From a virus (taxonomy: Duplodnaviria; Caudoviricetes): DNA of 34,309 bases. The DNA is taken from IMG/VR virus record IMGVR_UViG_3300032303_000434, positions 1 through 34,309 of that record; one strand, 5' to 3'. Shown here one piece after another: positions 1 to 15,426 of the stretch. The notes under the pieces are model-generated. The model did not search any database, was not told the DNA's origin, and saw only the letters and a program-made list of their open reading frames with translations. Position numbers and translations under genes: made by a program. Position 1 is the first letter of the stretch; every line of letters starts with the position of its first letter.

Positions 1-1
1 A

Positions 2-376
2 GCGCCAACAGCAGCCGCCCGCGGTTGGGAAATGCAAGTTGGCATGATGCTTGTATGCACTAATGGTCAAGACAAGGATATGCAGGCGCGCTTCACGGCT
101 ACGTCAGTCGGCGGCAAGCGTGCCGTGCAGGCGTTGGCAGTTGCCATCGCGGATCAGGTTGAGAAAGACCAGACCAAGCCTGTACCATTAATTGAACTGA
201 AAAAAGAGCATTATCAGCACAAGACTTATGGTCGTATCTTTACACCTATTTTTGATATTACCGATTGGGTGTCTATGGATGCCAATACGGTTGAAGAGAC
301 AGAGGACGCGGAATTGGAAGTCGCCGCTGAACCTGAAGCCGCTGAGGGTGCGCGTCGCCGGCGTCGCGTAGTTTAA
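2..376 (+). CDS. Putative single-stranded DNA-binding/replication protein, 5'-truncated
   Basis: Frame is open from the window start; YGRIFTPIF..TDW segment and acidic C-terminal tail (EETEDAELEV); lies directly upstream of DNA polymerase. Function is inferred. Confidence 0.5.
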   Translation, partial: APTAAARGWEMQVGMMLVCTNGQDKDMQARFTATSVGGKRAVQALAVAIADQVEKDQTKPVPLIELKKEHYQHKTYGRIFTPIFDITDWVSMDANTVEETEDAELEVAAEPEAAEGARRRRRVV

Positions 377-380
377 GGGG

Positions 381-420
381 CGCGAAAGCCGGGGCGTGTT
401 GGGCGTCCCGGCGAGTAGCG
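381..420 (+). other. Structured RNA hairpin with loop-E/sarcin-ricin-like internal loop
   Basis: CGC-GAAA-GCCGGGGCG-(TGTTGGG)-CGTCCCGGC-GAGTA-GCG: 9-bp stem (one G-U), GAA/AGUA internal loop, closing CGC/GCG; no U-tract. Confidence 0.45.
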
Positions 421-437
421 GAAGAGTGAGAACTTCT

Positions 438-614
438 ATGATCATAAATAATTACAGACACGTTTCGGCAAAAATGCCGCGCATGGCGGTGTGTTCAATA
501 TGCGACCGCGCCGGCGGCGAAGAAAACGCGCCTAAGTTCACCCACATCTGCATCCAGCTATTAAACGGTCAACCATTTATGTGTGATGACTGTTGGGAAG
601 ACCAACATGACTAA
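438..614 (+). CDS. Small Zn-finger-like protein (58 aa)
   Basis: ATG at 438 after GAAGAGTGAG; CSIC...CDDC pair; overlaps the polymerase start. Confidence 0.55.
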   Translation: MIINNYRHVSAKMPRMAVCSICDRAGGEENAPKFTHICIQLLNGQPFMCDDCWEDQHD

Positions 615-2562
615 GCTATGGCTTGACTTTGAAACGCGCAGCCGGTGCGATTTACGCAGCCGCGGCGTTTACAATTACGCGCAGGACGCCAGCACCGACG
701 TGTTGTGTATGTCATACGCATTTGATGACGAAGACGTGCGGACGTGGCTTCCCGGTGAGCCTTTCCCGCAAGCCGTCAAAGACCACAAGGGGCTAGTCTA
801 CGCGCACAACGCAGCATTCGAGCGCCTGATATTCTGGTATGTGCTTCAGGTCGAGTTCAAGTTGGAGCAGTTTTATTGCACTGCAACACAAGCCCGCGCC
901 AACTGTGCGCCGGGTAGCCTTGAAGATGTGGGCCGCTTCGCTGGCGCTACCATGAAGAAAGACCACCGCGGCGGACAATTGATTCGCGCGCTATCTATCC
1001 CGCAGTCCGACGGCACATTTCGTGAAGACGCAAAGCTGATGCAAGAGATGGTTGACTACTGCGAACAGGACGTGCGGGCTATGCGTGCCATAGCGCAGGC
1101 GCAGCGTCCGTTGTCCGGCGAAGAGTTGGCTGACTATCATGTCAATGAGCGGATCAACGACCGCGGCGTGTTGCTTGATAGACCGCTGGCGCTGGCCGCT
1201 GTGCGCTACGCTAAAGAAGAATTGGCGGAGATACAGGACATTGTCGCAGAGATAACTAACGGCGAGATTAAGACTGTCCGCAGCCCGAAGATGAAGACGT
1301 GGGTGCTGGACAGGATAGGGCCACAGGCGCTTGAACTGGCGACCATTTACAAAGACGGCGAACCTAAGCTATCCATTGACAAGAACGTGCGGGCTAACTT
1401 GCTCACACTGGCGGGGGAAAATCCAGATGAAGTACCATCAGAAGTTGCGGAAGTCATCCAGTGCGCGGACGATCTCTGGGCATCGTCCGTCGCTAAATTC
1501 CAACGCGCAGCGGCGCTTGCTGACGAGGAAGATCATAAGGTTAGAGGAGCGTTTGTGTTTGCAGGAGGGAGTGCTACTGGCCGTGCTTCATCATATGGGC
1601 TTCAAGTCCATAACTTCCCAAGAAAGTGCGCCAGCGACCCTGCATTAGTAAGGCAGGCTATGGTGCGCGGGCACAGGATTGTTCCCGATCATGGTCGCCG
1701 CGTAACTGACGTGCTGAAAGGTATGCTGCGCCCGTCGCTGATGGCGGACAAAGGCAAGCGCCTTGTTGTTGCAGATTGGGCTGCGATTGAAGCGCGCGTA
1801 ACGCCGTGGGCATCCAACAGTAGCTTTGGTGCAAACAAGCTGGACATCTTTGCCAAGGGCGAGGATGTCTACAAGCATAACGCTATGGCGACCTTCCATG
1901 TCGGATATGATGACGTTGACAAAGACCAGCGTCAAATTGGTAAGGTGCAAGAGTTGGCGTGCGGCTTTGCCGGCGGCGTTGGTGCGTTTGCCAGCATGGG
2001 CCGCATCTACGGCTTGCTGATGTCAGAGAGCGATGCCAAGCGCATGGTTGACGCATGGCGCAGGGCTAACAAGTGGGCCGTGCCTTACTGGTCTGGCCTT
2101 GAAGACACCTATATGCGTGCCATGCGGAACAAGAACCGTGAGTTTACAACGGGGCGCGTTACATATTTATTTGACGGATTGCATCTTTGGTATGCCCTTC
2201 CGTCTGGCCGTGTGTTATGTTATCCTTTCGCCCATTTCGACGAGGAAGGCAACTTGACCTACGCGAAGGCTTCTTGGAAGCCCGCAGCCGACGCTAAGGA
2301 GTGGCCAAGGGCGCGGCTATGGCGCGGTCTAGCGTGTGAAAACATCACACAAGCTATTGCCAACGACTTGCTGCGCTACGCCTTGCGGCAGTTGGACGAT
2401 GTAGTCTTGCACATCCACGATGAAATCGTTTTGGAAGTGCCAGAAGCAGATGCAGAGGCCGCAGCAACGCGGCTGGTGCAGGTTATGTGTTCGCCGCCAC
2501 CTTGGGCATCAGGTCTACCCCTGAACGCTGAAGTGGCTATCATGGATCGTTATGGAAAATAA
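607..2562 (+). CDS. polA: Phage DNA polymerase, family A, with 3'-5' exonuclease
   Basis: ExoI DFETRS, ExoII HNAAFER, ExoIII YCEQDV; motif A DWAAIEAR, motif B RQIGKVQELACGF, motif C HIHDE; start at ATG 607 (MTKLWLDFET) preferred over 583. Confidence 0.95.
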   Translation: MTKLWLDFETRSRCDLRSRGVYNYAQDASTDVLCMSYAFDDEDVRTWLPGEPFPQAVKDHKGLVYAHNAAFERLIFWYVLQVEFKLEQFYCTATQARANCAPGSLEDVGRFAGATMKKDHRGGQLIRALSIPQSDGTFREDAKLMQEMVDYCEQDVRAMRAIAQAQRPLSGEELADYHVNERINDRGVLLDRPLALAAVRYAKEELAEIQDIVAEITNGEIKTVRSPKMKTWVLDRIGPQALELATIYKDGEPKLSIDKNVRANLLTLAGENPDEVPSEVAEVIQCADDLWASSVAKFQRAAALADEEDHKVRGAFVFAGGSATGRASSYGLQVHNFPRKCASDPALVRQAMVRGHRIVPDHGRRVTDVLKGMLRPSLMADKGKRLVVADWAAIEARVTPWASNSSFGANKLDIFAKGEDVYKHNAMATFHVGYDDVDKDQRQIGKVQELACGFAGGVGAFASMGRIYGLLMSESDAKRMVDAWRRANKWAVPYWSGLEDTYMRAMRNKNREFTTGRVTYLFDGLHLWYALPSGRVLCYPFAHFDEEGNLTYAKASWKPAADAKEWPRARLWRGLACENITQAIANDLLRYALRQLDDVVLHIHDEIVLEVPEADAEAAATRLVQVMCSPPPWASGLPLNAEVAIMDRYGK

Positions 2563-2572
2563 GGAGCAAGCG

Positions 2573-4921
2573 ATGAGTGAGGATCGCACGAAGTTCATAG
2601 ACTATATAGTCGGGTTGGCCGCTGATACAGTGGGCGAAACGGCTCTATTGTTGCGTCAGAAGCCCACGCAAGACAGCGAAGGCAATCTGATATACCACGC
2701 AGATGGTGCGCCGAAGGCCACCTTCCCTGCGTTCCTGCCTGAAAAGGCCCGCATCAAAGAAGGTGAGGCTTGGTATATCAACACCGGCTCGTTCGTCGTT
2801 GACCGCTTTGTAGACGGCAAGCCCGCTGCTAAGTCGAGCAACGTTGAGTTTGTGTTGTTCATGATGCTGGATGACATTGGCACAAAGTCAAAGACCCCGC
2901 CACTTGACCCGACATGGATACTAGAAACCAGCGAAGGTTCGTTCCAGTGGGGTTATGCGTTCAGCGAACAGCCAAACAAGGGCGATTTCTGCGCGGCTGT
3001 CAAAGCTATTGCAGATGCTGGCTACACTGATCCGGGCGCGACCAACGCTGTCCGCAACTGTCGTATTCCCGGCAGCGTCAACCTGAAGCGCGGGCGCGAC
3101 AACTTCCCTGCACGGCTGGTCGAGTTTCACCCAGAGCGTGAATACGATTTAGCACAGATTTGTAGTGCGCTAAACGTTACGCCAGAGGAAGGCGACACCG
3201 CAGAGTTTAAGACTGTGCATTTGCGCGACAGCGGGCTGGATAATGTCCTGACATGGTTAAGCGAAAACAACCTAGTCCTTAGCGCACCTAATACCGACGG
3301 CTGGTGCGGCATCGTCTGCCCTAACCATGAACATCACAGCGATGGCATGATTGAGGCGCGTTACAAGCCGCTGGATCGTTCGTTCTGCTGCTATCATGGG
3401 CATTGCCAAGACCTAGACAGCCGCACGTTCCTTGATTGGGTAGCGACTAACGGCGGCCCGAAGGTAACGCCCGGCTTGCGTGACGAGTTAATCGCAGAGC
3501 GCATGGCATCAATGATGGATAAGATAGCACCAACAGAAGCCTTCCCTGATGAAGCCGCAGCGCGTGTGCGTGAAGTCGAAAAGAAAGAGGCAGGACGGCT
3601 GGAACAAAGTGAATGGTTCGAGCGGTTCGCTTACATACAGTCTGATGATTGCTATTTCGACATGATTACACGTCAAGAGATAGCGCGTAACGTCTTTAAC
3701 GCTTTGTTCCGTCACGTTGACTGCAAATCCATACACAAGAAAACCCGCAGCGTGTTGGCGTCTGTTTATTTTGACGAGCGCCGCCAAGAACGTGGTGCGC
3801 CTGCGCTGGCAGCGGTGACGTTTGCCGCTGGCGATGATGTGCTGGTGACGCGCGACGGGTTGGTCTACGGCAACAGGTGGACAAACGCCCGTCCTGATGT
3901 GTCGGGCAGCGATGACATTGCAGACCATGACGTTGAGCCTTGGCTGGCGCATTGCCGTAATCTGGTGTCAGACGATGCAGAGTTAGACCATATCCTTGAC
4001 GCTATGGCATTCAAGATACAGCACCCCAACATCAAGATAAACCATGCAATCCTTATCGGTGGTGACGAAGGCGCGGGCAAGGACAGTATGTTCCAGCCGT
4101 TTCTTTGGGCGCTTGGCGGTAAGAATTGGCGCAACAGATCAGTCATTGAGGCTGGCGGGTTGGATAGCCAGTGGGGTTATTCACTTGAAGCTGAAGTGGT
4201 CATTCTGAACGAGTTGAAGGAACCAGAGGCAAGAGAGCGCCGCGCTATGGCTAACAAGCTAAAGCCGCTGATTGCTGCGCCGCCTGAAACGTTGTCGGTC
4301 AATCGTAAAGGTATGCACCCTTATGAGTTGGTCAACCGCTTGATGGTGGTGGCTTACACGAATGACCCGTTGCCTATCACGCTACCAACGCAAGATCGTC
4401 GGTGGTTCTGCGTCTGGACACGCGCCCCGCGCATGACAACAGCCGCAGCCAAGGCGCTATGGGGCTGGTATAAGTCTGGCGGTTATGAGAAGTGCGCCGC
4501 TTGGCTGCACCAACGCGACGTGTCTGCGTTCAACCCTGCTGCTGCGCCGCCAGTGACCGAATGGAAGCTGAACATGGTCGAACATGGCATGAGCATAGCG
4601 GAAAGCTATCTGGTAGACCTGATGCGTGCCAAGTCTGGCGTGTTTGCTGATGGTGTTATTGGTGGGCCGTTCCATCGCATCTGCGACGCACTGGCTATCA
4701 ACGTGCCGTCTGGCGTCAAAGTTCCACAGGCTGCGTTGCTTCATGCGTTGAAGGAAGCTGGCTGGGTTGATGTAGGGCGCGTTAACTCGAAAGACTACAC
4801 GACTAAGAAACATATCTTTGCCGCGCCAGATGCGCTTCAGAAGCACAGCAAATCAGAGTTGCGCCGCTTGGCAGAACAATTGCCAAAGAATAGCATCATG
4901 CCAAACATCAGTAAGAATTGA
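2573..4921 (+). CDS. Primase-helicase (RepB-like/AEP primase domain, Zn-binding domain, SF3/D5-like helicase)
   Basis: LDDIG, ETSEGSFQWGY and RIPGSVNLK primase motifs; CPNHEHH...CCYHGHC; Walker A GDEGAGKD, Walker B ILNE, motif C YTN; AAGGAG RBS before ATG 2573. Confidence 0.88.
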   Translation: MSEDRTKFIDYIVGLAADTVGETALLLRQKPTQDSEGNLIYHADGAPKATFPAFLPEKARIKEGEAWYINTGSFVVDRFVDGKPAAKSSNVEFVLFMMLDDIGTKSKTPPLDPTWILETSEGSFQWGYAFSEQPNKGDFCAAVKAIADAGYTDPGATNAVRNCRIPGSVNLKRGRDNFPARLVEFHPEREYDLAQICSALNVTPEEGDTAEFKTVHLRDSGLDNVLTWLSENNLVLSAPNTDGWCGIVCPNHEHHSDGMIEARYKPLDRSFCCYHGHCQDLDSRTFLDWVATNGGPKVTPGLRDELIAERMASMMDKIAPTEAFPDEAAARVREVEKKEAGRLEQSEWFERFAYIQSDDCYFDMITRQEIARNVFNALFRHVDCKSIHKKTRSVLASVYFDERRQERGAPALAAVTFAAGDDVLVTRDGLVYGNRWTNARPDVSGSDDIADHDVEPWLAHCRNLVSDDAELDHILDAMAFKIQHPNIKINHAILIGGDEGAGKDSMFQPFLWALGGKNWRNRSVIEAGGLDSQWGYSLEAEVVILNELKEPEARERRAMANKLKPLIAAPPETLSVNRKGMHPYELVNRLMVVAYTNDPLPITLPTQDRRWFCVWTRAPRMTTAAAKALWGWYKSGGYEKCAAWLHQRDVSAFNPAAAPPVTEWKLNMVEHGMSIAESYLVDLMRAKSGVFADGVIGGPFHRICDALAINVPSGVKVPQAALLHALKEAGWVDVGRVNSKDYTTKKHIFAAPDALQKHSKSELRRLAEQLPKNSIMPNISKN

Positions 4922-4947
4922 CAACTGTTTGGGTGCGATGATATACT
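4918..4947 (+). promoter_or_regulatory. Sigma70-type promoter with extended -10
   Basis: TTGACA (4918-4923), 18-bp spacer ending TG-A, TATACT (4942-4947); no downstream ORF on the + strand. Confidence 0.75.
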
Positions 4948-4952
4948 GTTAG

Positions 4953-5015
4953 GGTTGGCAATGCTCCGCTAACCTGATTAAACCCCCGGCGTCCTCACTC
5001 CGCCGGGGGTTTTTT
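4953..5015 (+). ncRNA. Candidate small RNA (~63 nt) with two anti-SD loops
   Basis: Starts about 6 nt after the -10; hairpin 1 GGTTGGC-AATGCTCC-GCTAACC (4953-4974); hairpin 2 CCCCCGGCG-TCCTCACTC-CGCCGGGGG followed by T6. Confidence 0.6.
4980..5015. terminator. Rho-independent terminator between convergent operons (strong on +, weaker on -)
   Basis: 12-bp perfect stem AAACCCCCGGCG/CGCCGGGGGTTT with T6 on +; TTTAAT follows on -. Confidence 0.85.
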
Positions 5016-5016
5016 A

Positions 5017-5196
5017 TTATTCGTCCCAGACTGCTTCTGCGTCTAGGATCAGTTCACAGGGCGGGTAGCGTAGGTGGCACACCTCATCGTCAGTCAACAC
5101 GCCCCTAAAGGCAAGATGCTCCAACAGGCGATAAGCCAGCGTAGCCTCTGCGCGCTTGTCGTAGTTTTCAAATGCTTCTGCTTCTTCATCGGTCAT
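5017..5196 (-). CDS. Hypothetical protein (59 aa)
   Basis: ATGA overlap with the upstream gene; acidic protein MTDEEAEAF... Confidence 0.7.
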   Translation of the reverse strand: MTDEEAEAFENYDKRAEATLAYRLLEHLAFRGVLTDDEVCHLRYPPCELILDAEAVWDE

Positions 5197-5378
5197 GCTG
5201 GTTTCCAATCTTCAGGGTAGGGAACTGTTTTGGCGGTAGTCTTGTATAGCCGCCCATTTTCATCATAATGCTCTGTCACTGTCGATCCGTCATCGTTCAG
5301 GACAACGGCGCGGTTAGGGTATATTCGCCACGGCCTTCCCGTCTTGGGGTCGATGCGGTAGTTTATTTTGTCCGTCAT
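5193..5378 (-). CDS. Hypothetical protein (61 aa)
   Basis: ATGA coupling on both sides; GAGGA RBS. Confidence 0.7.
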   Translation of the reverse strand: MTDKINYRIDPKTGRPWRIYPNRAVVLNDDGSTVTEHYDENGRLYKTTAKTVPYPEDWKPA

Positions 5379-5554
5379 TTCTTTTCCTCAATCCAAAAGT
5401 GGTGCATCATGTAATGTGTTGCGGTTTCGTCTGTCACCCTATCGCCTATCCCGCCGCTTGCGGTGGTCAAGTGATTGGTGAAGGTGTTGGGGTCTTTAGC
5501 TGAACGCACCGCAGGGATGCGTGTCAGTTTCATATATCCATTTTGGTCTGTCAT
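5375..5554 (-). CDS. Hypothetical protein (59 aa)
   Basis: ATGA coupling; start MTDQNGY at 5554. Confidence 0.65.
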   Translation of the reverse strand: MTDQNGYMKLTRIPAVRSAKDPNTFTNHLTTASGGIGDRVTDETATHYMMHHFWIEEKK

Positions 5555-5718
5555 TTGCGTAACAATCCTTCTAATTCGCGCAGCGCCCACTGGATGCCTT
5601 GGATTTCTACACCCATGTCGTGCAAGCCGTGTGCGTCCTTGGCGTGTAGAAACACTTCTGACATATCCCAGCAGACACGCTCACGTTTGCGTAGTGCTTC
5701 GATGCGTTCTTTAATCAT
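5551..5718 (-). CDS. Hypothetical protein (55 aa)
   Basis: GGAGCAAG RBS, ATG at 5718 (MIKERIEAL...). Confidence 0.7.
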   Translation of the reverse strand: MIKERIEALRKRERVCWDMSEVFLHAKDAHGLHDMGVEIQGIQWALRELEGLLRK

Positions 5719-5881
5719 GTGCTTGCTCCAAGCCTTTACGGATGCCTTCTTCAACGAGGCGCATCCAGATCGTATGATCCCAGCCGCCTGACGCATAAAT
5801 TTGCCAGTCTCCGTTATCCTGCTTGCTGGATTGCTCAACGCAGATAGCGCGGGCTGCTTTTGTAATCTGTTCGTCAGTCAT
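5711..5881 (-). CDS. Hypothetical protein (56 aa)
   Basis: GGAGGT RBS, ATG at 5881 (MTDEQITKAARAIC...). Confidence 0.7.
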   Translation of the reverse strand: MTDEQITKAARAICVEQSSKQDNGDWQIYASGGWDHTIWMRLVEEGIRKGLEQAHD

Positions 5882-6062
5882 CTGCCAATACCTCCGGCGC
5901 TGGTTGCAAGCCCTCCATAAACTTTGCCCAGACTGCCAGAGCGCCTGTGACAAAAGGGCCATCATCCTGCTCACCATCTCTAATCTGGCGGATAAATTCC
6001 GCATTGCCGTGTTTTGTCTGCACATGATCCGCGACCACGTTTCTAAGTTCTATCAATGTCAT
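5874..6062 (-). CDS. Hypothetical protein (62 aa)
   Basis: AGGA RBS, tight packing in the operon. Confidence 0.7.
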   Translation of the reverse strand: MTLIELRNVVADHVQTKHGNAEFIRQIRDGEQDDGPFVTGALAVWAKFMEGLQPAPEVLADD

Positions 6063-6066
6063 TTGT

Positions 6067-6252
6067 TTATCCTAATCTGGTTATGAACGTAACGCCGCCC
6101 ACAGTGCGGCACTTGAACGCCTTGCCGTTGCGTATGCCGTATTGTGACACGTTGCGGCTGGTGCGCTTGGCTGCGCCTTTGTCGGTGGCTGGCATAGTGC
6201 CAACATCGCCAACGGCCAGCGTTGCCATGGGGTAAATCATTGGTCGGCTCAC
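6067..6252 (-). CDS. Small basic hypothetical protein, possibly DNA-binding (61 aa)
   Basis: GTG start overlapping the upstream TGA; AAGGAGCAAG RBS; YP..L.VG motif; Arg/Lys-rich. Confidence 0.6.
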   Translation of the reverse strand: MSRPMIYPMATLAVGDVGTMPATDKGAAKRTSRNVSQYGIRNGKAFKCRTVGGVTFITRLG

Positions 6253-6386
6253 TTGCCTTGCTCCTTTTCTTTGCGGCGCTCTGCCCATGTCTTGCCGTTT
6301 AGGTCGCGCAGCGGCCATGCGCTGTCGGACGATACGCGATATTTGCGGCCCAATGGGGCGGCTTGTTGTGGTTTAATCATACTCAT
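6249..6386 (-). CDS. Hypothetical basic protein (45 aa; not in ORF track)
   Basis: MSMIKPQQAAPLGRKYRV...KEKEQGK*; ATGA/GTGA overlaps with both neighbours. Confidence 0.6.
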   Translation of the reverse strand: MSMIKPQQAAPLGRKYRVSSDSAWPLRDLNGKTWAERRKEKEQGK

Positions 6387-6721
6387 AACTCCACTGTCGT
6401 TATAGGCTTGGCGCGTTTGTCGTTTAGCCTAGCCAGCCAGTATTCTTGTTCTGGCCCGAATGAACGCGCAGCATGGTATTTGAACAGCGCCACAGCCAAC
6501 GGGTCATGTCCCTTGTGCTTATGCGTCACGATTAGCGGCGATGGCATCATTGGCTTATGGTCGGGGCTATAGAACCGCCGCCTATCGTCGGCTGTCACTT
6601 CGATTATATCGACTGTCGATAAGTTCAAGCCATGCTCGTTATTGACATAGGCAGCAACAACGCTCTTGTCGTTGATATAGCTGGCTAGGTGCAGGATTTG
6701 CTTGCGTAGTGCGTATTCCAT
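6383..6721 (-). CDS. Hypothetical protein (112 aa)
   Basis: GGGAGCAA RBS, TGATG overlap. Confidence 0.7.
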   Translation of the reverse strand: MEYALRKQILHLASYINDKSVVAAYVNNEHGLNLSTVDIIEVTADDRRRFYSPDHKPMMPSPLIVTHKHKGHDPLAVALFKYHAARSFGPEQEYWLARLNDKRAKPITTVEL

Positions 6722-6876
6722 CAGTTTTGCTCCCGTTTGATGAGTAGTAATTCGCGGCTATCGCGCAGCCATGCTGTGCGGAACCATTCGCGGTCAATAT
6801 GCGTCTGCCACAGGACAGTCAGCGTTGTGGCTTGCAATGCCAACAGCGCCACGATTGCGATTTGATATTGGTTCAT
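6721..6876 (-). CDS. Small membrane protein (51 aa; not in ORF track)
   Basis: GGAGGA RBS; MNQYQIAIVALLALQATTLTVLW... hydrophobic N-terminal segment. Confidence 0.6.
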   Translation of the reverse strand: MNQYQIAIVALLALQATTLTVLWQTHIDREWFRTAWLRDSRELLLIKREQN

Positions 6877-6936
6877 TTAGTCCTCCAATAATAATGTTAG
6901 TAAGAATAGGGCTGCGCCAGCCAACAGCGCAGTCAT
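6877..6936 (-). CDS. Hydrophobic micro-peptide (19 aa)
   Basis: MTALLAGAALFLLTLLLED*; ATGA overlap upstream and abuts the next ATG. Confidence 0.45.
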   Translation of the reverse strand: MTALLAGAALFLLTLLLED

Positions 6937-7139
6937 TCGGCCATATCATCGCGCAGGGCGTTATTTTCGGCCACTAGGCGGTCGTATAGCGTCTGCAACT
7001 GCTCTAATTCGTCTTTAACGTCCAGCAATTCGCTAAGGCGCTCTGCCAGCACAACAGTTAATTCGTGATTGCGGTCTAATGCCGTTCGCACGAGCTCTGC
7101 ATCTGACAACATTCTGAGATAGTTTCTGTCTTGTGTCAT
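6933..7139 (-). CDS. Hypothetical coiled-coil protein (68 aa)
   Basis: AAAGGA RBS; heptad Leu pattern. Confidence 0.7.
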   Translation of the reverse strand: MTQDRNYLRMLSDAELVRTALDRNHELTVVLAERLSELLDVKDELEQLQTLYDRLVAENNALRDDMAE

Positions 7140-7142
7140 TGC

Positions 7143-7430
7143 TCAGTTTCCTTTTGCTTTGTTGATTGCGGTTTCGGCGCTGTCGATTAGCGGTTTAAGG
7201 TGACGGACGAGATCACGGTCTAAAAAAGATAATGCTTCGCAAGCACCATCCATTAAGTTTTCAAGCGCTGCCAGCATCTCGCTATGGCTGTCTTTCAGCG
7301 CCAAGATTGCGGTCAGGTTCTCTACGCTATCGTCGTATAATTCGCCTTCATTGTTTACGGCGTTGCCCATCAGCACGCATTTGTTGCTTTGGAGTAGTTC
7401 GCGCACTGTGCGGAATATGTCGTTAGTCAT
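7143..7430 (-). CDS. Hypothetical protein (95 aa)
   Basis: AAAGGA RBS; EMLAAL...AINKAKG motif of the kind common in small phage early proteins. Confidence 0.7.
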   Translation of the reverse strand: MTNDIFRTVRELLQSNKCVLMGNAVNNEGELYDDSVENLTAILALKDSHSEMLAALENLMDGACEALSFLDRDLVRHLKPLIDSAETAINKAKGN

Positions 7431-7446
7431 GGTTCAGTTTCCTTTT
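7143..7446. repeat. 13-bp direct repeat TCAGTTTCCTTTT bounding one gene
   Basis: Identical copies at 7143-7155 and 7434-7446 (AAAAGGAAACTGA on -: RBS plus stop codon). Confidence 0.8.
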
Positions 7447-7523
7447 AATGTGATGATGATTGACGTGATTGATAGGGCTAAGACAGACGCAAAGCCTACT
7501 AGGGATAGAGCGTGCGCTATCAT
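7434..7523 (-). CDS. Single-pass membrane peptide (29 aa; not in ORF track)
   Basis: MIAHALSLVGFASVLALSITSIIITLKGN*; ATGA overlap. Confidence 0.55.
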   Translation of the reverse strand: MIAHALSLVGFASVLALSITSIIITLKGN

Positions 7524-7690
7524 GCGTCTTCACCTATAGTTTCCGCATATTCGGCAGCTAATTGCGCGTCATCATAGTTGGCTTGAAACCGAGCCTCGAT
7601 TGTATCGCGGACAATTTCTTCAAGGTCTTTGACGCTAAGGTCAGTCATCCAGCATTCTACCAGTTCATTAATCATTTCTTCGCGTGTCAT
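7520..7690 (-). CDS. Acidic hypothetical protein (56 aa; not in ORF track)
   Basis: AGGAGTGAG RBS; MTREEMINELVECWMTDLSVKDLEE... Confidence 0.7.
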   Translation of the reverse strand: MTREEMINELVECWMTDLSVKDLEEIVRDTIEARFQANYDDAQLAAEYAETIGEDA

Positions 7691-7728
7691 AGTGTCTCAC
7701 TCCTATATTGGCACTAGCGCCATCCTCG

Positions 7729-7746
7729 CGGCGGATTGCTCCGCCG
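7729..7746 (-). other. Intergenic hairpin with GCAA (GNRA) tetraloop
   Basis: CGGCGGA-GCAA-TCCGCCG on the - strand; no U-tract. Confidence 0.6.
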
Positions 7747-7756
7747 TCCGGTGGTG

Positions 7757-7987
7757 TTAGCAGCAGTCGCAAACGGACAAAGGCCAGCCGTTGCGGCACA
7801 GTTCTTCGCCAAATAGCGTTTCATGCTCATCTCTTACGATTGCAGCGCGTGCTGCGATGATGGCGGGGACAAGATAGCCGCCGCTGGGATTATGTGCGAA
7901 AACCGCTGGCAATTGAATGTCAGGGCAATCAGGCGAGACTAGGGCGTCAAGAAGCCCTTGAAGGGCGCTGTGTATGTTGTTGGTCAT
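7757..7987 (-). CDS. Hypothetical protein (76 aa)
   Basis: GGGAG RBS, ATGA overlap; C-terminal C..CDCC. Confidence 0.55.
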   Translation of the reverse strand: MTNNIHSALQGLLDALVSPDCPDIQLPAVFAHNPSGGYLVPAIIAARAAIVRDEHETLFGEELCRNGWPLSVCDCC

Positions 7988-8316
7988 GCCATGTCTCCCA
8001 TTGCTTGCGCCCACAGGCTATTGCAGATGTCGTTGTCGGTGTGATCTTGGATCAGTTCGCTACCATCGTCGGCATTGCCCCAGACAAGATAGAGACTGCC
8101 AGCGTAGTCACCATTGGTGTCTATCAAGCGCAGCACATCGCCGCCTGTGGTTGCCAGCGCATTCATGACAGGCGTCCACATAGTTGCGCGCTTAACAGTC
8201 CATTCTTCACCATCGTTAACGTCGATGGCGCAGCCAGCGGCTAATGCTGCGCGGACTAGCCGCCGCGCTACTGTGCGTTCACCTTGTGTGGTGTAGTGAT
8301 CAAAAGATGTAGTCAT
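7984..8316 (-). CDS. Hypothetical phage protein (110 aa)
   Basis: GGAGTGAG RBS, ATG at 8316 (MTTSFDHY...). Confidence 0.75.
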   Translation of the reverse strand: MTTSFDHYTTQGERTVARRLVRAALAAGCAIDVNDGEEWTVKRATMWTPVMNALATTGGDVLRLIDTNGDYAGSLYLVWGNADDGSELIQDHTDNDICNSLWAQAMGDMA

Positions 8317-8339
8317 GGTTCTCACTCCAGTTGAATTGA

Positions 8340-8531
8340 TTAATACTGATCTGCGCTCTGCGCCCACTGAACCTGACGCATCGCGTCAGACCAGCCAAGC
8401 TGCCAACGATTGTAGCGGCTATCGACTGAACTGTCGGTGCGCGAACTGTATGGACAGTCAGTGTCGCGTTCGCCGCGCCCAAATGCGCGATAGCCTGCGT
8501 GATACTCTACGTTGTCGGTTCTGATGGTCAT
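8340..8531 (-). CDS. Ribosome modulation factor (Rmf)/CrpP-like protein (63 aa)
   Basis: GY.A...G.....CPY...R..W..GW..A pattern matches the Rmf family signature; AGGAGTGAG RBS. Confidence 0.7.
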   Translation of the reverse strand: MTIRTDNVEYHAGYRAFGRGERDTDCPYSSRTDSSVDSRYNRWQLGWSDAMRQVQWAQSADQY

Positions 8532-8555
8532 GTCACTCACTCCTGTTGAAAATGG

Positions 8556-8582
8556 TCTGCGTGACGAGCTGCGCCACGCAGA
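8556..8582 (-). other. Intergenic hairpin
   Basis: TCTGCGTGGCG-CAGCT-CGTCACGCAGA on - (11 bp, one G-U). Confidence 0.6.
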
Positions 8583-8588
8583 GTAGAT

Positions 8589-8807
8589 TTACCATTCGCC
8601 CGCCGAACGGACTTCGTCGCGCATCTCTGCCAGCGGCGCGAGAGCTTCGCGGACATTGTCGATTGCTTGCTTGATAGTGGAAGCGCCGTCTAAGCACTCC
8701 ATGATGTCGCCATCTTCCCAGCACTCCACGACATAGTCCCAGCCGTCTTTATTATAGTTTGCGTGGGCGTAATGGCGGACTGCGTTTATAAGGTCTTGTT
8801 CGTTCAT
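8589..8807 (-). CDS. Acidic hypothetical protein, first gene of the leftward operon (72 aa)
   Basis: AGGAGTGA RBS, ATG at 8807 (MNEQDLINAVRHYA...GWDYVVECW). Confidence 0.75.
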   Translation of the reverse strand: MNEQDLINAVRHYAHANYNKDGWDYVVECWEDGDIMECLDGASTIKQAIDNVREALAPLAEMRDEVRSAGEW

Positions 8808-8841
8808 GTCATTCACTCCTACAGCGTCATGCTGCGCCCTC

Positions 8842-8870
8842 ATTCTACACAATAAGAGGGTATATAAAAG
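8842..8870 (-). promoter_or_regulatory. Possible leftward (early) promoter
   Basis: TAGAAT -10 hexamer about 35 nt upstream of ATG 8807 in AT-rich DNA; the -35 is poor. Confidence 0.35.
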
Positions 8871-8931
8871 TCACTATTTTGCATCGCCATGTCGATTTCT
8901 GGGTTTGCGACAAATTATGTGGCATTTCTGC

Positions 8932-8989
8932 ACTACCCTCTAAAACCGATTTTAAGCCTCATACAGAGCGATTTGAGTTTGAGGGTAGT
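8932..8989. repeat. Inverted repeat / stem-loop
   Basis: ACTACCCTC (8932-8940) / GAGGGTAGT (8981-8989), extendable by AAA/TTT. Confidence 0.6.
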
Positions 8990-9019
8990 CTAGTATGGAA
9001 ACAGGTCGAGTCTGAAAAG

Positions 9020-9050
9020 GTTCTGGTTCTGTTCTGTTTCTGTTCTGTTT
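9020..9050. repeat. Short tandem repeat (GTTCT)n, about 5-6 imperfect units
   Basis: GTTCTGGTTCTGTTCTGTTTCTGTTCTGTTT. Confidence 0.75.
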
Positions 9051-9053
9051 TGC

Positions 9054-9432
9054 AAATGACGTCCAAATGACTACCAAAATGACTACCGGCATTTCGTCGT
9101 GCGATGAACCGAAAATGCCGGGCAATTATGGGACGTCAAATAGTCATTTTGGACGTCATTTTGGAGGGGCAAATGACGTCCCGAAAAATGGCTCGAATGC
9201 GCGGGTTACAGAGAATCGGACGTCAAATAGTCATAAAATAGATAAGAAGGTAAGTTTAAAAAAATGACTATATAATATAACCTATATGGTTTGTAGCACT
9301 CCATTCGTCGGCGACTTCAAGTTTGCGAAAAAATGACTTGATGCAAAAATGTCACACCTCCTTTTGTTCTCATGTTTGACGTTAACGTAAAGCATTCTCC
9401 GGTGACTTGGCGCACCATGACTATTTGACGTC
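9054..9432. repeat. Iteron-like array of AAATGAC(GTCC/TA) motifs in both orientations; putative replication origin or packaging site
   Basis: Copies at 9054, 9065, 9077, 9171, 9262 and 9331 (+); 9141 and 9151 (-); 16-mer GACGTCAAATAGTCAT at 9132 and 9219 and inverted at 9417. Confidence 0.75.
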
Positions 9433-9456
9433 TGTTACTGTGTTAATACAGTAACA
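9433..9456. repeat. Perfect 9-bp inverted repeat (operator-like)
   Basis: TGTTACTGT-GTTAAT-ACAGTAACA. Confidence 0.7.
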
Positions 9457-9700
9457 CACCTAGTGTATTAATATGTTAACACACCGACACACTAGCCAGC
9501 CAATATGTTTTTACTAATGCGAGTCAGTCGCAACAAGGGAAAGGTCACGCGTTAATCTGCGAGACTGTTTTAAGCTGGCCGCCGGCTGGCATGGGGAGGG
9601 GGGTGGCAGGGCCGAGCGCCGCGTGGCTGACACGGTCACGGGTCGCAAACAATTTTTATTTTTTTTAAAAAAGGTTATTGCACCCCTGCACCAAAGCCTG

Positions 9701-9729
9701 TTGCGTATCTGCGTCCAGTAGATTATTGT
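9701..9729 (+). promoter_or_regulatory. Putative sigma70 promoter for the terminase operon (leaderless mRNA geometry)
   Basis: TTGCGT-17 bp-TATTGT; ATG 9737 begins 7 nt after the -10; no SD; upstream A/T tract at 9651-9672. Confidence 0.5.
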
Positions 9730-9736
9730 ACGCGCA

Positions 9737-10234
9737 ATGACATTTTACTCACTGCCATTTACGCCAGAGCGGACGCAGGCCACCGAGTCGCGGCTTGAGG
9801 CAATCTATGAAGCTGCCCGCTACGGGCTAAAAGGTGATAGCCTCGCTATGGCGGCTGGCATGACCCCGCGGCAGTTCCGCATATTGGCAGAGCAAGACCC
9901 GCTGGTTGAAATGGCTGAGATCAAGGGGCGTAGCGACGGCGAGTACACCGCCGGCAAGACTATGTACGAAGCTGCGCGCGATGGCGACGCTAAGGCCGCG
10001 CTGGAAATACTCAAGCACCAGCACGGCTGGGTAGCCAAGCAACAGATTGACGTAAACATCGACCAACAGATAAGCATCACAGGCGCACTGGAAAAAGCAC
10101 AGACGCGCGTCATCGAAGGGCTGTACACTGAACTGCCCCGACTAGAGGATAACTCCAATGCAAGCACCGATATATTCAGCCCAAGACGAGATGGAGTTGA
10201 TGGCAAGGTTGTGGTCCCCCAGCCTGAAAGATGA
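9737..10234 (+). CDS. terS: Terminase small subunit (putative)
   Basis: Position immediately before terL; HTH-like LAMAAGMTPRQF; GD.KAA..ILKH.HGW..KQ.IDV tail typical of small terminases. Confidence 0.7.
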   Translation: MTFYSLPFTPERTQATESRLEAIYEAARYGLKGDSLAMAAGMTPRQFRILAEQDPLVEMAEIKGRSDGEYTAGKTMYEAARDGDAKAALEILKHQHGWVAKQQIDVNIDQQISITGALEKAQTRVIEGLYTELPRLEDNSNASTDIFSPRRDGVDGKVVVPQPER

Positions 10235-11693
10235 CCCACTAGCATTTGTCCTGTACACATTCCCGTGGGGCCAAGCTGGCACACCGTTAGAAAACTTTCC
10301 CGGTCCGCGTAAATGGCAGCGGCAGATACTTGCCGACTTGCGCGACCACATCAAAGAGAACCAAGGCAAGGTAGACTTCAGCACGTTTCGTGAGTCAGTC
10401 GCCTCTGGCCGTGGTATTGGTAAATCCGCACTTGTCTCATGGTTGGTCATCTGGATGCTGTCATCAAGAATCGGTTCGACCACCATCGTGTCGGCAAACT
10501 CCGAAGCGCAGTTGCGGTCGGTAACATGGGCAGAAATTACTAAGTGGCTGGCGATGAGTCTTAACAGTCACTGGTTCGAGATAGCAGCCACACGCATCAT
10601 GCCAGCCAAGTGGCTGACGGAACTGGTCGAACGCGACTTAAAGAAAGGCACGCGCTATTGGTCAGTCGAAGGCCGGCTGTGGTCAGAAGAAAACCCTGAC
10701 GCCTACGCTGGTGTCCACAACTTCGACGGTGTGATGTTGATCTTCGACGAAGCCAGCGGTATACCCGACAGCATATGGTCCGTATCGGATGGTTTCTTCA
10801 CCGAAAATACACCACATCGGTTTCATCTGGCGTTCTCCAACCCGCGGCGCAACACAGGGTATTTTTACGAGACGTTCCACAGCAAGCGGGCGTTCTGGTC
10901 AACACGCGTCATAGACGCCCGTGATGTCGAGGGGACAGACAAAAACCTGTACCAGCGCATCATCGACGAGTACGGGCCAGACAGTTACCAAGCCAGTGTC
11001 GAAGTCTACGGTAACTTCCCATCAGAAGGTGACGATCAGTTCATCGGCAGCAATCTGGTTGATGATGCCATGAAGCGGCCATCTATTAAGGATGACACAG
11101 CGCCCATCGTCATAGGTGTTGACCCTGCACGCTTCGGGGCTGACGCTACTGTCATCGCCGTGCGCCAAGGGCGTGACATCTTGGAACTGCGGAGACACCG
11201 CGGGGCTGACACGATGGAAGTGGCCGGCTACGTCATCGACGCGATAGAGCAGTTCAAGCCTGCACTGGTCTGCATCGACGAAGGCGGGCTAGGCGCAGGC
11301 GTCGTGGATCGGCTGAAGGAACAGCGGTACAAGATACGCGGCGTCAACTTCGGCAACAAAGCTAAGAACCAGATTATGTGGGGCAACAAGCGCGCAGAGA
11401 TGTGGGGCGCCATGCGTGACTGGCTACGCACAGGCCACATACCTAACGACAGGTTTCTGAAGACAGACCTTATCAGCCCGCGTACCAAGCCTGACAGCAA
11501 GGGTACGCTGTTCTTAGAAAGCAAGAAAGATATGAAGTCACGCGGGCTGGCCTCGCCTGACGCAGCGGACGCCATAGCGGTCACGTTTGCCTTTCCTGTG
11601 GCGTCAAGGGATTTTCGACAAGGACGCGTTGACAGACGCACATCAAACGGGTATTCTTCCGCTGGAATATCTACAAGCTGGATGGGCAGTTAA
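10158..11693 (+). CDS. terL: Terminase large subunit
   Basis: Walker A SGRGIGKS, Walker B LIFDEA, coupling motif SNP, nuclease GVDPA...IDEGG...SPDAADA. Confidence 0.95.
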   Translation: MQAPIYSAQDEMELMARLWSPSLKDDPLAFVLYTFPWGQAGTPLENFPGPRKWQRQILADLRDHIKENQGKVDFSTFRESVASGRGIGKSALVSWLVIWMLSSRIGSTTIVSANSEAQLRSVTWAEITKWLAMSLNSHWFEIAATRIMPAKWLTELVERDLKKGTRYWSVEGRLWSEENPDAYAGVHNFDGVMLIFDEASGIPDSIWSVSDGFFTENTPHRFHLAFSNPRRNTGYFYETFHSKRAFWSTRVIDARDVEGTDKNLYQRIIDEYGPDSYQASVEVYGNFPSEGDDQFIGSNLVDDAMKRPSIKDDTAPIVIGVDPARFGADATVIAVRQGRDILELRRHRGADTMEVAGYVIDAIEQFKPALVCIDEGGLGAGVVDRLKEQRYKIRGVNFGNKAKNQIMWGNKRAEMWGAMRDWLRTGHIPNDRFLKTDLISPRTKPDSKGTLFLESKKDMKSRGLASPDAADAIAVTFAFPVASRDFRQGRVDRRTSNGYSSAGISTSWMGS

Positions 11694-11959
11694 TGGCAGG
11701 CAAGAAAAAATCTGTGTCGTTGTCTGTAGGCCGTGGCGAGAAATTGCCTGTGTCTAAAGGCGCGGGACTGACTGCGGCTGGTAGAGCCAAGTATAATGCT
11801 GCAACTGGCAGCAACCTAAAGGCGCCTGCGCCCAGCCCAAAGACAAAGGCTGACGCAGGACGCAAAGCGTCATTTTGTGCCCGCATGGGTGCAGTAGCTG
11901 CTAAGGCTAAAGATGGCGAACGTGCCAAAGCTAGTTTGAAAAGGTGGAAATGCCCATGA
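11693..11959 (+). CDS. Small Lys/Ala-rich basic protein (88 aa)
   Basis: GLTAAGRAKYN...RKASFCARM...SLKRWKC; coupled to terL. Confidence 0.75.
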   Translation: MAGKKKSVSLSVGRGEKLPVSKGAGLTAAGRAKYNAATGSNLKAPAPSPKTKADAGRKASFCARMGAVAAKAKDGERAKASLKRWKCP

Positions 11960-12114
11960 AACCCGGTCTATATGCCAACATCCATGCAAAGCAAAAGCGG
12001 ATTGCCGCTGGTTCAGGCGAAAAAATGCGTAAACCCGGCGCTAAGGGCGCTCCTACCGCTAAGGCTTTTAAAGAAAGCGCCAAGACAGCCAAACCAGCTA
12101 AGAAGGGTAAGTAA
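11956..12114 (+). CDS. Small Lys-rich protein (52 aa; not in ORF track)
   Basis: MKPGLYANIHAKQKRIAAGSGEKMRKPGAKGAPTAKAFKESAKTAK...; ATGA overlap. Confidence 0.7.
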   Translation: MKPGLYANIHAKQKRIAAGSGEKMRKPGAKGAPTAKAFKESAKTAKPAKKGK

Positions 12115-12336
12115 ATGCCAGCCAATAAATACACACGCGAACTGTACAAAGTCGGTACTGTAAAGGCTGAAAAAGCCGCGATGGCTAACAGCGATCCTGC
12201 CCGCAAAATGGCAGCCATGAAGATTATGGCGCAAGAAGGTTCAACAAACGCAGCCGGCGGACGCCCAGCCAAACCACCACAGGTCATCCGCACAACGGTA
12301 AACATGAAGTCAACACCAGCGGCAAAGAAACGCTAA
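12115..12336 (+). CDS. Small basic protein (73 aa)
   Basis: Abuts the upstream stop; Lys/Ala-rich. Confidence 0.6.
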   Translation: MPANKYTRELYKVGTVKAEKAAMANSDPARKMAAMKIMAQEGSTNAAGGRPAKPPQVIRTTVNMKSTPAAKKR

Positions 12337-12337
12337 A

Positions 12338-12478
12338 GTGCCGTTGGTTAAATCACCTAGCAAAGCCGCGTTCCGCAAAAACATCAAGGCTGAAGTAAAT
12401 GCCGGTAAACCTGTCAAACAGGCAGTTGCAATCGCGTATAGCGTAAAACGTGAATCCGCTAAAAAAGGTAAAAAGTAA
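12338..12478 (+). CDS. Small basic protein (46 aa; not in ORF track)
   Basis: GTG start; MPLVKSPSKAAFRKNIKAE...GKPVKQAVAIAYS...KKGKK. Confidence 0.7.
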   Translation: MPLVKSPSKAAFRKNIKAEVNAGKPVKQAVAIAYSVKRESAKKGKK

Positions 12479-12483
12479 CCACA

Positions 12484-14736
12484 ATGGCTGATCCGACAGG
12501 TATTAACAAAGTAGGCGACGTAGCTGACATCGGTAGCGATCCAGCGAACACACGCGGCGATCCAGATACAATGGCAACTATGCGCCATCGTATGCAGATG
12601 GGTATGGCTGCGTTGTCGGACAGCCGTGAAGATGAATTAGACGATTTGCGGTTTATGGCCGGCAGCCCTGACAACCAGTGGCAGTGGCCAGCCGACGTAC
12701 TGGCAACCCGCGGTGCGGTGCAAGGCCAGACGATCAACGCACGGCCATGCCTTACAATCAACAAACTGCCGCAGCACGTCCGTCAGGTTACGAACGAACA
12801 GCGCCAAAACCGCCCAGCCGGTAAAGTAATACCCGTTGATGATAACGCTGACATTGAAGTGGCAGCGATTTTTGATGGCGTTGTGCGGCACATTGAATAC
12901 ATATCCGACGCAGATGTTGCTTACGACACTGCCTGCGACAATCAGGTAACGTATGGTGAAGGTTACATTCGTCTGATTACAGAATATTGTAGTGAAGAAA
13001 CCTTTGACCAAGACGTTCGCATTATGCGCGTTCGCAACTCGTTTAGCGTTTACATGGACCCTACAATCCAAGACCCATGCGGCTCTGACGCTGAATGGTG
13101 CTTTGTCACGCAAGACATGACCAAAGAAGAGTATGAACGCGAATTTCCAGACGCGTCACCTATCTCGTCAATTATGTCCACCGCCGTTGGCGATGAAAGC
13201 CTGTCCGCATGGCTTGACGAAGACACTGTCCGCATCGCGGAGTATTTTTACTACAAACGCAAGCGCGAAACGCTGAATCTGTATCCAGATAACGTATCTG
13301 CGTTCAAAAACACCGACATGGATAAGCAACTGCGCGCCATGTACGGCAAACCTGTTCGCACACGCGAAGTAGACCGCAAAAAAGTCATGTGGATGAAGAC
13401 CAACGGCTATGATGTGCTTGATGAGCGCGAGTGGCCGGGCAGTTGGATACCCGTCGTGCGCGTTGTAGGCAACGAATTTGAAGTGCAAGGCCAAATTTAC
13501 GTGTCTGGCCTAGTTCGCAACGCCAAAGACGCGCAGCGGATGTACAATTATTGGACCAGCCAAGAGGCAGAAATGCTTGCATTGGCTCCAAAAGCGCCAT
13601 TTATTGCATACGGCGGCCAGTTTGAAGGTTACGAACAGCAGTGGAAGACTGCCAACACGACCAACTGGCCGTATTTGGAAGTCAATCCAGACGTTACAGA
13701 CGGCGCTGGTAACACATTACCGCTTCCACAGCGTGCAGCACCACCGCTGCCACAAACAGGTCTGATACAAGCTAAAATGGGCGCTGGAGAGGACATCAAG
13801 TCCACCACCGGCCAGTATGACTCGTCTTTAGGCGCTCAAGGTAACGAACGGTCTGCAAAAGCTATTATTGCACGCGAAAAGCAGGGCGATGTTGGCACGT
13901 ATCACTATGTTGACAACCTTGCCCGTGCGATCCGTCACATTACCCGCCAGCTTGTTGATATTATCCCTAAGATTTATGACACGCAGCGGATTGCACGCAT
14001 CATCGGCGTTGACGGTGAAGTCAGCATGGTCAAAATGGACCCAATGCAACCAGAGCCGGTCAAGGAAATCCGCGACCAAAATGGCGGGCTGATTGAAAAA
14101 ATATACAACCCGTCAATCGGCACATACGACGTTATGGTTACTACTGGCCCCGGTTACATGACCAAGCGTCAAGAGGCGCTTGACGCCATGTCTACGATCC
14201 TGCAATCCAACCCGCAGCTTTGGACTGTGGCCGGCGATCTGTTCATTAAGAACATGGATTGGCCCGGAGCGCAGGAAATGGCGAAGCGGTTCAAGAAAAT
14301 CCTTGACCCGAAAGTCTTGGAAGAAGGCGATCAGTCGCCAGAAATCATGGCTGCCAAGCAACAGATTGAAGCCTTGTCGCAAGAACTCAACCGTGTCTCT
14401 GACATCATGGAGAATATCCAAGATAGCGCAGAGCAGCAGAAAATTTCCATCGACAAGTACAAAGCTGAAGTGCAAGCTTACGAAGCTGAAACCAAGCGCA
14501 TCTCTGCTGTACAAAACAGCATGACACCTGAACAAATTCAGGATATTGTCATGGGTACGATTGCAGGCGCACTGGATACAGGCGACTTGATCGGCGGTTC
14601 ACCTGAAATGCGCGAAGTACCGCAGATGGAAGAGCAGCCGGAAGAAAGCCACGCGATGCCAGACGGCCAGATGATGCCAAATAGCGAAATGCCAATGGAA
14701 ATGCCAGAACAAGCACCTGAAGGAATGATGTCATGA
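12484..14736 (+). CDS. Portal protein, P22 gp1-like
   Basis: 750 aa after terL; QW...RPCLTINKL, GLVRNAKDAQRMYNY, YDV.V.TGP...TKRQEA; C-terminal coiled-coil barrel. Confidence 0.92.
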   Translation: MADPTGINKVGDVADIGSDPANTRGDPDTMATMRHRMQMGMAALSDSREDELDDLRFMAGSPDNQWQWPADVLATRGAVQGQTINARPCLTINKLPQHVRQVTNEQRQNRPAGKVIPVDDNADIEVAAIFDGVVRHIEYISDADVAYDTACDNQVTYGEGYIRLITEYCSEETFDQDVRIMRVRNSFSVYMDPTIQDPCGSDAEWCFVTQDMTKEEYEREFPDASPISSIMSTAVGDESLSAWLDEDTVRIAEYFYYKRKRETLNLYPDNVSAFKNTDMDKQLRAMYGKPVRTREVDRKKVMWMKTNGYDVLDEREWPGSWIPVVRVVGNEFEVQGQIYVSGLVRNAKDAQRMYNYWTSQEAEMLALAPKAPFIAYGGQFEGYEQQWKTANTTNWPYLEVNPDVTDGAGNTLPLPQRAAPPLPQTGLIQAKMGAGEDIKSTTGQYDSSLGAQGNERSAKAIIAREKQGDVGTYHYVDNLARAIRHITRQLVDIIPKIYDTQRIARIIGVDGEVSMVKMDPMQPEPVKEIRDQNGGLIEKIYNPSIGTYDVMVTTGPGYMTKRQEALDAMSTILQSNPQLWTVAGDLFIKNMDWPGAQEMAKRFKKILDPKVLEEGDQSPEIMAAKQQIEALSQELNRVSDIMENIQDSAEQQKISIDKYKAEVQAYEAETKRISAVQNSMTPEQIQDIVMGTIAGALDTGDLIGGSPEMREVPQMEEQPEESHAMPDGQMMPNSEMPMEMPEQAPEGMMS

Positions 14737-15095: not shown

Positions 15096-15105
15096 GATAA
15101 TATGT

Positions 15106-15384: not shown

Positions 15385-15426
15385 TATCGTAATCAACATA
15401 TTACTTTTAACGTGTAAGGATATTTA

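Follow-up and report, generated by a model that had tools for sequence, protein, structure and literature searches.

We propose that a short gap in this phage genome encodes an uncatalogued small RNA that acts in trans to repress translation of the phage's own early and replication genes, probably as a timer, and we consider this account likely. The window, by which we mean the entire 34,309-nt stretch analyzed, is a 34.3-kb phage record that is 92% complete. Its polymerase and primase-helicase genes lie on the + strand; the - strand between roughly 5000 and 8850 is taken up by small genes without known function, which are called early here on account of their position and size; and the terminase, portal, capsid and lysis genes follow on the + strand from 9737 onward. 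The element (4918-5015) occupies the gap where the replication operon meets the converging early operon. It is a conserved, structured, promoter-bearing unit whose loops complement a defined subset of the phage's own translation starts; its transcription, pairing, repressive action and purpose we infer. The initial sequence-only reading had taken it for a base-pairing RNA directed against the phage's own early and replication genes, and at the level of sequence comparison this proposal gains support from conservation, from the contrast between early and late genes, from the absence of the element in a sister clade, from a second phage family and from the covariation of seeds with ribosome binding sites (RBSs).

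The element opens with a predicted host sigma-70 promoter (4918..4947, + strand) made up of TTGACA at 4918-4923, an 18-nt spacer, a TG at 4939-40 that extends the -10 box, and TATACT at 4942-4947; with 11 of 12 matches it is the top promoter-like site within positions 1-17000. Because its TTGA overlaps the stop codon of the primase, the -35 box is partly constrained by coding. Among 42 unique promoter variants TTGAC, C4936, the TG at 4939-40 and TAT at 4942-44 are invariant, the spacer drifts, and conservation does not extend to the final T of the -10 box (12/42 variants). The predicted RNA of ~63 nt (4952..5015, + strand, with a putative 5' end) consists of two hairpins; the fold of 4953-5015 has a z score of -5.6, none of 200 shuffles being equally stable, and an RNA model of the element (R1) finds one match in the whole window, at 87 bits. 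Hairpin 1 (4952..4975, + strand) has a G-U-rich stem and displays in its loop (4960-4967) the seed UGCUCC, the complement of GGAGCA. Hairpin 2 (4980..5015, + strand) is an intrinsic terminator between the converging operons, with the seed CCUCACUC in its loop (4992-5000) and a T run at 5010-5015. The promoter match and the fold bear out the near-perfect promoter, two hairpins and terminator described at the outset; the 8-nt match claimed for loop 2 stands as far as complementarity goes, its last C being, however, the closing base pair of the terminator stem, which must open for that pair to form.

All 77 closest relatives (primase 85-93% identical) keep the promoter, both hairpins and the loop cores. 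Over 201 usable primase loci, a set from which the copy in the window itself, duplicate loci and loci with a truncated primase end were removed, the element occurs in 118/118 loci with a primase identity of at least 67% (116 found by script and two by eye) and in 0/83 loci at 53-64%. In 24 diverse sequences hand-chosen from 78, 99.6% of stem cells are paired and 7/20 pairs show two-sided changes; the stems covary and the loop cores CUCC and CUCACU stay fixed, the CUCC of loop 1 being invariant across 27 aligned sequences. The 5' neighbor base of the loop-1 seed varies in the window's clade, and the targets there stay mostly GGAGCAA, a point against our preferred explanation. In the clades at ~72%, the promoter-like sequence lies inside the primase coding end, as judged by eye. 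Neither the element nor loop-complementary motifs were found in the element-less sister clade, and a search of element-less loci L111-L158 for a replacement anti-Shine-Dalgarno (anti-SD) terminator yielded four isolated candidates, of which two have a T run, and none that the loci share; in the annotated phage collection a single record was found, whose primase is 53% identical and which lacks the element. Own promoter, terminator, conserved structure and conserved seeds are thus found together, the combination expected of a trans-acting base-pairing sRNA.

The primase-helicase gene (2573..4921, + strand; PHROG primase matches), the start codon of which we correct to 2573, is both the upstream neighbor of the element and its main predicted target. 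The sequence-only reading overlooked the best site, a 9-nt complement of loop 2 that runs across the first primase codons (2575-2583). It falls in a start hairpin (2570..2587, + strand) with a 5-bp stem that holds the ATG and a loop (2575-2582) that complements loop 2, making it a predicted kissing target, and the duplex of loop 2 with the primase start is predicted at -16.7 kcal/mol. The 18-mer forming this hairpin is identical in 73/75 unique coding sequences; one of the two variants keeps the stem via G-U and the other is changed on both sides. Codons 2-5 use one codon each in all 75 unique genes, compared with column medians for the top-codon share of 0.68-0.79 for S, E, D and R. This count demanded Ser-Glu at codons 2-3, which left 4/97 loci outside the filter; two of these four carry the motif, and L110 carries it as RBS. 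The primase RBS itself (2563..2568, + strand) is GGAGCA, a loop-1 site that is common among relatives and not invariant. Farther upstream, a hairpin with an AGUGAG loop (420..437, + strand) lies in front of ORF 438-614, with which the polymerase cassette begins; most relatives have this site ahead of the polymerase ATG. Most loci show the AGUGAG core at the start of the polymerase cassette, and many show it at the start of the exonuclease. Where AGTGAG lies by starts it is placed in a stem of at least 4 bp in 67/94 contexts, as against 0/18 elsewhere. The element-less clade has no primase start hairpin, and no AGUGAG core was found at its polymerase or exonuclease starts.

The same structures could conceivably be read in the opposite sense, with the RNA pairing to its targets and activating or stabilizing them, for instance if the hairpin at the primase start were opened by the pairing. 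The ATG and the Shine-Dalgarno sequence (SD) of the primase do lie inside predicted stems (-8.3 kcal/mol) that pairing of loop 2 could disturb. However, the duplex would cover either the end of the ATG and the codons next to it or the SD, an arrangement that blocks translation in c4 and sar according to the part of PMC12197685 available to us, and we regard activation as quite unlikely.

The loop-complementary sites are not confined to the replication operon. On the - strand, loop-1 sites lie at the RBSs of early ORFs 5718-5551 (5724..5729), 6252-6067 (6259..6264) and 6721-6383 (6728..6733); loop-2 sites of 8 nt lie at those of ORFs 7690-7520 (7696..7703), 8316-7984 (8321..8328) and 8531-8340 (8536..8543), and one of 7 nt at that of ORF 8807-8589 (8813..8819). 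Every RBS motif position originally listed was confirmed in the window. Upon hand curation of the window's starts, a loop match of at least 6 nt was found at 11/18 early or replication starts, four of which have coordinates that are a few bases off or uncertain, versus 0/28 late starts. The remark, made by eye, that late RBSs lack both motifs holds over a larger sample, with neither class at any of 170 unique late starts (24 genes, 11 genomes), 18 of which do have GGAG. The comparison of early with late starts that had been suggested as a check hence shows the loop-complementary classes enriched early and absent late. Outside the element, 105 of the 107 occurrences of GGAGTGAG in 78 sequences, which were not dereplicated, lie 4-5 nt upstream of an early ATG. 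Counted by protein family in the window's clade, early GGAG is followed by TGAG in 33/101 families, by TGA plus A, C or T in 3, 1 and 1, and by CA in 33; in clade B CA follows in 33/71 families and TGAG never does; in the element-less clade CA follows in 10/121 and TGAG in 0. Nine related genomes with a degenerate loop 1 have 0.33 early GGAGCA sites on average, compared with 1.5 for 44 others (p 0.001, with no correction for kinship). Two observations temper this picture: the loop-1 seed spans just 6 nt, of which four are ordinary Shine-Dalgarno; and clade B often retains CUCACUCC although it is without early GGAGTGAG sites, which counts against our preferred explanation. The window also contains a third class of early RBS, of the AAGGAAAC type and represented by two genes, for which there is no matching loop. 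Early starts of unrelated genes moreover share flanking sequence and may, as a result, be copied together as units; kinship and copied gene starts inflate these counts, and the p-values carry no correction for kinship or tree.

This sharing of flanks is also what an altogether simpler account would build on, in which the element is a bidirectional terminator only, the RBS classes reflect the host's Shine-Dalgarno preference together with copied early starts, and the loops match them by chance or as a relic. Such an account agrees with the location of the element between converging operons and with the fact that GGAG and GAGG are ordinary SD cores. It does not explain why the promoter and hairpin 1 are kept, the promoter even when moved into the primase coding end (by eye), or why the terminator loop is invariant within 37 unique stems, variable in both length and sequence, that are all built around one CTCAC core. 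Late genes use the same ribosome and are without the motifs. Furthermore, the usual 16S tail would favor T after GGAGTGA, yet 33 families have the loop-matching G there and one has T, and in the second family described below seed and RBS change together. Taking these points together, we hold the terminator-only account to be very unlikely.

Another way to account for the recurrence of one sequence in the element and at early starts is to suppose that GAGUGAG and GGAGCA are protein-binding sites, be it in mRNA, at the minus-strand 3' end or in DNA hairpins, with the element serving as a decoy when its opposite strand is read. The minus strand of the terminator loop indeed shows the same sequence as the early sites, and many targets are hairpin loops. 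Strand-specific features nevertheless point to the + strand: hairpin 1 is more stable there in 29/29 unique variants, and G-U pairs are present there. Clade C retains the loop with co-directional downstream genes, and the five seed/RBS classes considered next would require five protein specificities. We find a protein-site explanation the least probable of those weighed here, and highly improbable in itself. A CsrA/RsmA consensus and a RegB-like cleavage site were also weighed and set aside.

Independent evidence for a base-pairing RNA comes from a second, unrelated family. A pattern scan returned 120 loci, 60 of them beside a close primase and many others chance terminators; twelve carried the same two-loop RNA in contigs without a window-type primase. 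These belong to ~62-kb phages whose polymerase is 26-29% identical to that of the window, and for which the window's primase, portal and capsid give no match. Here too the RNA is located at the end of the early/replication operon. A model built from first-family RNAs only finds one match in each of ten whole or nearly whole second-family records, at 24-45 bits; among six other second-family loci, with other seeds or partial cover, it matched L435 only. In four complete genomes of this family GGAGCA makes up 46/80 of early GGAG sites as opposed to 1/62 of late ones.

Second-family relatives bear differing seeds, and the covariation between loop and RBS that had been proposed as a check is seen at one orthologue, a ~140-aa gene, with five matched seed/RBS classes. 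Its RBS matches the RNA of its own genome over 7.4 nt, compared with 6.1 nt for the RNAs of others (52 pairs). Over 18 distinct RBS cores the cognate match averages 8.4 nt versus 6.2 nt when shuffled (p 5e-5), and ten of these cores, in five sequence classes, match the cognate RNA by 9-12 nt. Together with the variants of the primase start stem, such natural covariation takes the place here of engineered compensatory mutations. Three control orthologues gave no signal in this test and one a slight signal, and a permutation over seed groups gave a modest result, with p 0.014 when 3 nt were considered and 0.053 for 2 nt. The ~140-aa gene is weakly Pam3-gp33/Mu-Gam-like. With another seed, that of G033, matches of at least 8 nt occur at 7/40 early and 0/31 late starts. 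The largest second-family seed group (23 loci), however, has 0/57 exact early matches and no self-match, and in two whole genomes of its lineage early matches of at least 8 nt number 3/42 and 1/32.

That one large lineage keeps the RNA without a match to its own starts would be expected if a real RNA acted mainly on host mRNAs, or titrated a host factor such as Hfq, with the self-matches being secondary. Anti-SD seeds would suit many host mRNAs, and the phage RNAs VpdS and PreS act on host RNAs, as the available part of PMC12197685 relates. Nonetheless, selection on phage mRNAs is needed to account both for the invariant synonymous codons at the phage's own primase start and for the way in which its own sites sort between early and late genes, and a primarily host-directed role therefore seems to us unlikely.

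According to the model that we favor, repression of the phage's own starts, host polymerase would transcribe the ~63-nt RNA from infection onward, and the RNA would accumulate and pair through its loops, in trans, with the start regions of early and replication mRNAs. Loop 2 would kiss the small hairpins at the starts of the primase, the polymerase cassette and the exonuclease and, in the window's clade, pair with early GGAGUGAG sites, while loop 1 would pair with early GGAGCA sites. Since the SD or the first codons would be buried in these duplexes, loading of the 30S subunit is predicted to be blocked, and late genes without these sites would escape. The build-up of the RNA would in this manner wind down early and replication proteins, serving as a delay timer or as negative feedback. 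This is the most likely purpose, with superinfection exclusion or a carrier state second; superinfection exclusion is possible under a timer and a dormant-state role alike.

Timer or feedback in lytic growth is ranked over a dormant state because scans of 47 ORFs of the complete genome G001 and of 28 ORFs from G003 and G016 found no integrase, partition or CI-type family, and a search of GTDB (185,579 bacterial and archaeal genomes) gave no clear prophage. Nor did the ORFs scanned include any antirepressor, CI or integrase family, most early ORFs having no family at all; G016 has a small Cro-like HTH gene. The GTDB matches amounted to 12 short MAG contigs of mixed taxa, without prophage context or host assignment. 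The option of a quiescent state that was raised initially thus receives no direct support. Four RNA-labeled runs contain assembled contigs of relatives, in which no transcript was seen, contigs showing neither ends nor strand. One relative's contig ends at the terminator (4839-5018) and another reads through, but since contigs cannot show transcription, their ends were left out of the evidence.

No Rfam family is matched at the gathering threshold. NsiR1 (RF02399) scores 34.5 bits against a cut-off of 39, mostly over the terminator and a linker that is variable among relatives; NsiR1 forms a tandem array in cyanobacteria, and the window holds one copy of the element. Cuckoo/ar14 (RF02344) scores 24.6 bits against 58.8, and the sub-threshold matches as a group (NsiR1, ar14, His leader, CopA) were judged to be terminator similarity. 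AbcR1/2 are not among the Rfam matches, whether gathering or sub-threshold, and c4 (RF01695) is matched neither at gathering nor at E up to 10.

As regards mode of action, c4 of P1 and P7 is a phage-encoded, trans-acting antisense RNA of about 77 nt whose loops pair with an RBS region and block translation, as the available portions of PMC12197685 and PMC2864571 describe it. The element resembles it in that loop-presented sequences complement RBS regions of the same phage, the complementarity being present and the pairing predicted. In the same sources, however, c4 addresses one antirepressor mRNA of a temperate phage, whereas the RNA here is predicted to target tens of early genes that are unrelated to one another, along with the primase, the polymerase cassette and the exonuclease; unlike c4, the element is a plain two-hairpin unit with its own terminator, in phages where neither repressor nor integrase was found. 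The sar RNA of P22 (about 68 nt) likewise blocks translation initiation of a phage gene, but has a single target, ant, in the account available from PMC12197685, as opposed to the many that the element is predicted to reach via seeds of 6-12 nt. AbcR1 of Rhizobiales shares with it two separate single-stranded anti-SD modules with different target sets, and differs in being, in the available text of PMC4152367, a host chromosomal regulator of ABC transporters rather than an RNA with predicted targets among its own phage's genes. Cuckoo RNAs of Alphaproteobacteria consist of between two and four adjacent hairpins whose stems vary and whose anti-SD loops are C/U-rich, features that the element shows in its two, but all cuckoo loops carry CCUCCUCCC in the part of PMC4615179 at hand, from which the element's loops (UGCUCC and CCUCACUC types) differ, as they do from each other. 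We take the element to represent a real RNA family, uncatalogued and probably of the trans-acting anti-SD kind, with a predicted mode like that of c4 and AbcR1, and a member of neither nor of cuckoo. Phage sRNAs covered in the available part of the 2025 review have either a single phage gene or host mRNAs as their targets (PMC12197685), and the accessible text of PMC10914365 lists many ncRNA candidates in virulent phages and assigns none of them such a function. A literature search over titles and abstract starts returned no account of this RNA or of a multi-target anti-early phage sRNA.

To our knowledge, the repressor-less shut-off of early and replication proteins in lytic phages is poorly known. 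If our model is correct, a 63-nt RNA and a short RBS code would make up a whole-regulon switch, testable by a few reporters and natural compensatory pairs, with phage culture unnecessary; the seeds would predict which genes of unknown function are early and would offer orthogonal RNA/RBS pairs for engineering. More tentatively, and with odds that we place somewhat below even, at least two unrelated families of phages that lack a repressor and seem to be virulent may run their early-to-late switch by one exchangeable RNA module. Early and replication RBSs would be sorted into RNA-addressable classes, the primase and polymerase starts would contain kissing hairpins, and the code would be kept out of late starts; the trans-acting RNAs may derive from cis-antisense RNAs over a primase start, apparently retained in a sister clade.

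Finally, the conserved positions of the promoter resemble the Caulobacter RpoD consensus as quoted in the available part of PMC8144410. Together with a weak GcrA-like match, this resemblance suggests an alphaproteobacterial host.

Among the relatives of this phage, the predicted two-hairpin RNA behind the primase-helicase gene (window 4952-5015) also takes variant forms. A longer RNA, in which an insert separates the two hairpins, is found at the related loci L009, L011, L018, L042, L043, L063, L070 and L075-L077, and in these versions loop 1, the hairpin 1 loop complementary to GGAGCA early RBSs, is mostly degenerate. In clade C (L079-L094 and L104), the end of the primase coding sequence contains or adjoins hairpin 1, which carries a different, C/A-rich loop; the genes downstream are co-directional, and only the system of loop 2, the terminator-hairpin loop complementary to AGUGAG-type start sites, is retained. 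Of 31 unique variants of the promoter spacer (the equivalent of window 4924-4941), 8 include a palindrome, which is of one or the other of two distinct kinds and may be an operator or a chance occurrence.

A third repeated class of early RBS, of the AAGGAAAC type, is present on the minus strand at window 7143-7154 and 7434-7445. It is frequent in relatives and has affinities with the RBS class that predominates in the element-less sister clade (loci at 53-64% primase identity that lack the RNA); no loop matching it was found.

Other structures occur 3' of the primase where the window's RNA is missing. At L117-L133 and L221-L222 the RNA is replaced by tandem direct repeats of ~19-20 bp, iteron-like in character, directly after the primase stop codon. 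At L130:12347-12413 and L243 (58-59% identity), the primase is followed by a terminator that matches the RNA model weakly and bears a different C/U-rich loop, for which no clearly matching RBS class was found.

Part of the element-less sister clade carries an A tract and a G/C hairpin between the polymerase stop codon and the primase RBS (L112, many of L116-L138, L149, L160, L171:9941-10003, L239 and genome G024, L399-L400), oriented as a terminator for a putative antisense transcript across the primase start. Cis-antisense control of primase is possible in these phages. The antisense stretch at L171:9941-10003 is similar to the trans RNAs of the second family, ~62-kb phages in which the same type of RNA ends the early/replication operon. 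In the early region of one member, G016 (L386:9292-11575), a gene for a MoxR-like AAA ATPase adjoins that for a DUF2201 vWA/metallopeptidase protein, and both have loop-1 sites.

Elsewhere in the window, an inserted 58-aa ORF (438-614) separates the polymerase from the conserved loop-2 hairpin; in relatives this position is either empty or occupied by different genes. A candidate origin or control region is the long non-coding stretch (8860-9700) that separates the early operon from the packaging operon, in which A/T runs occur along with several copies of ATGACTATTTGACGTC-like motifs.
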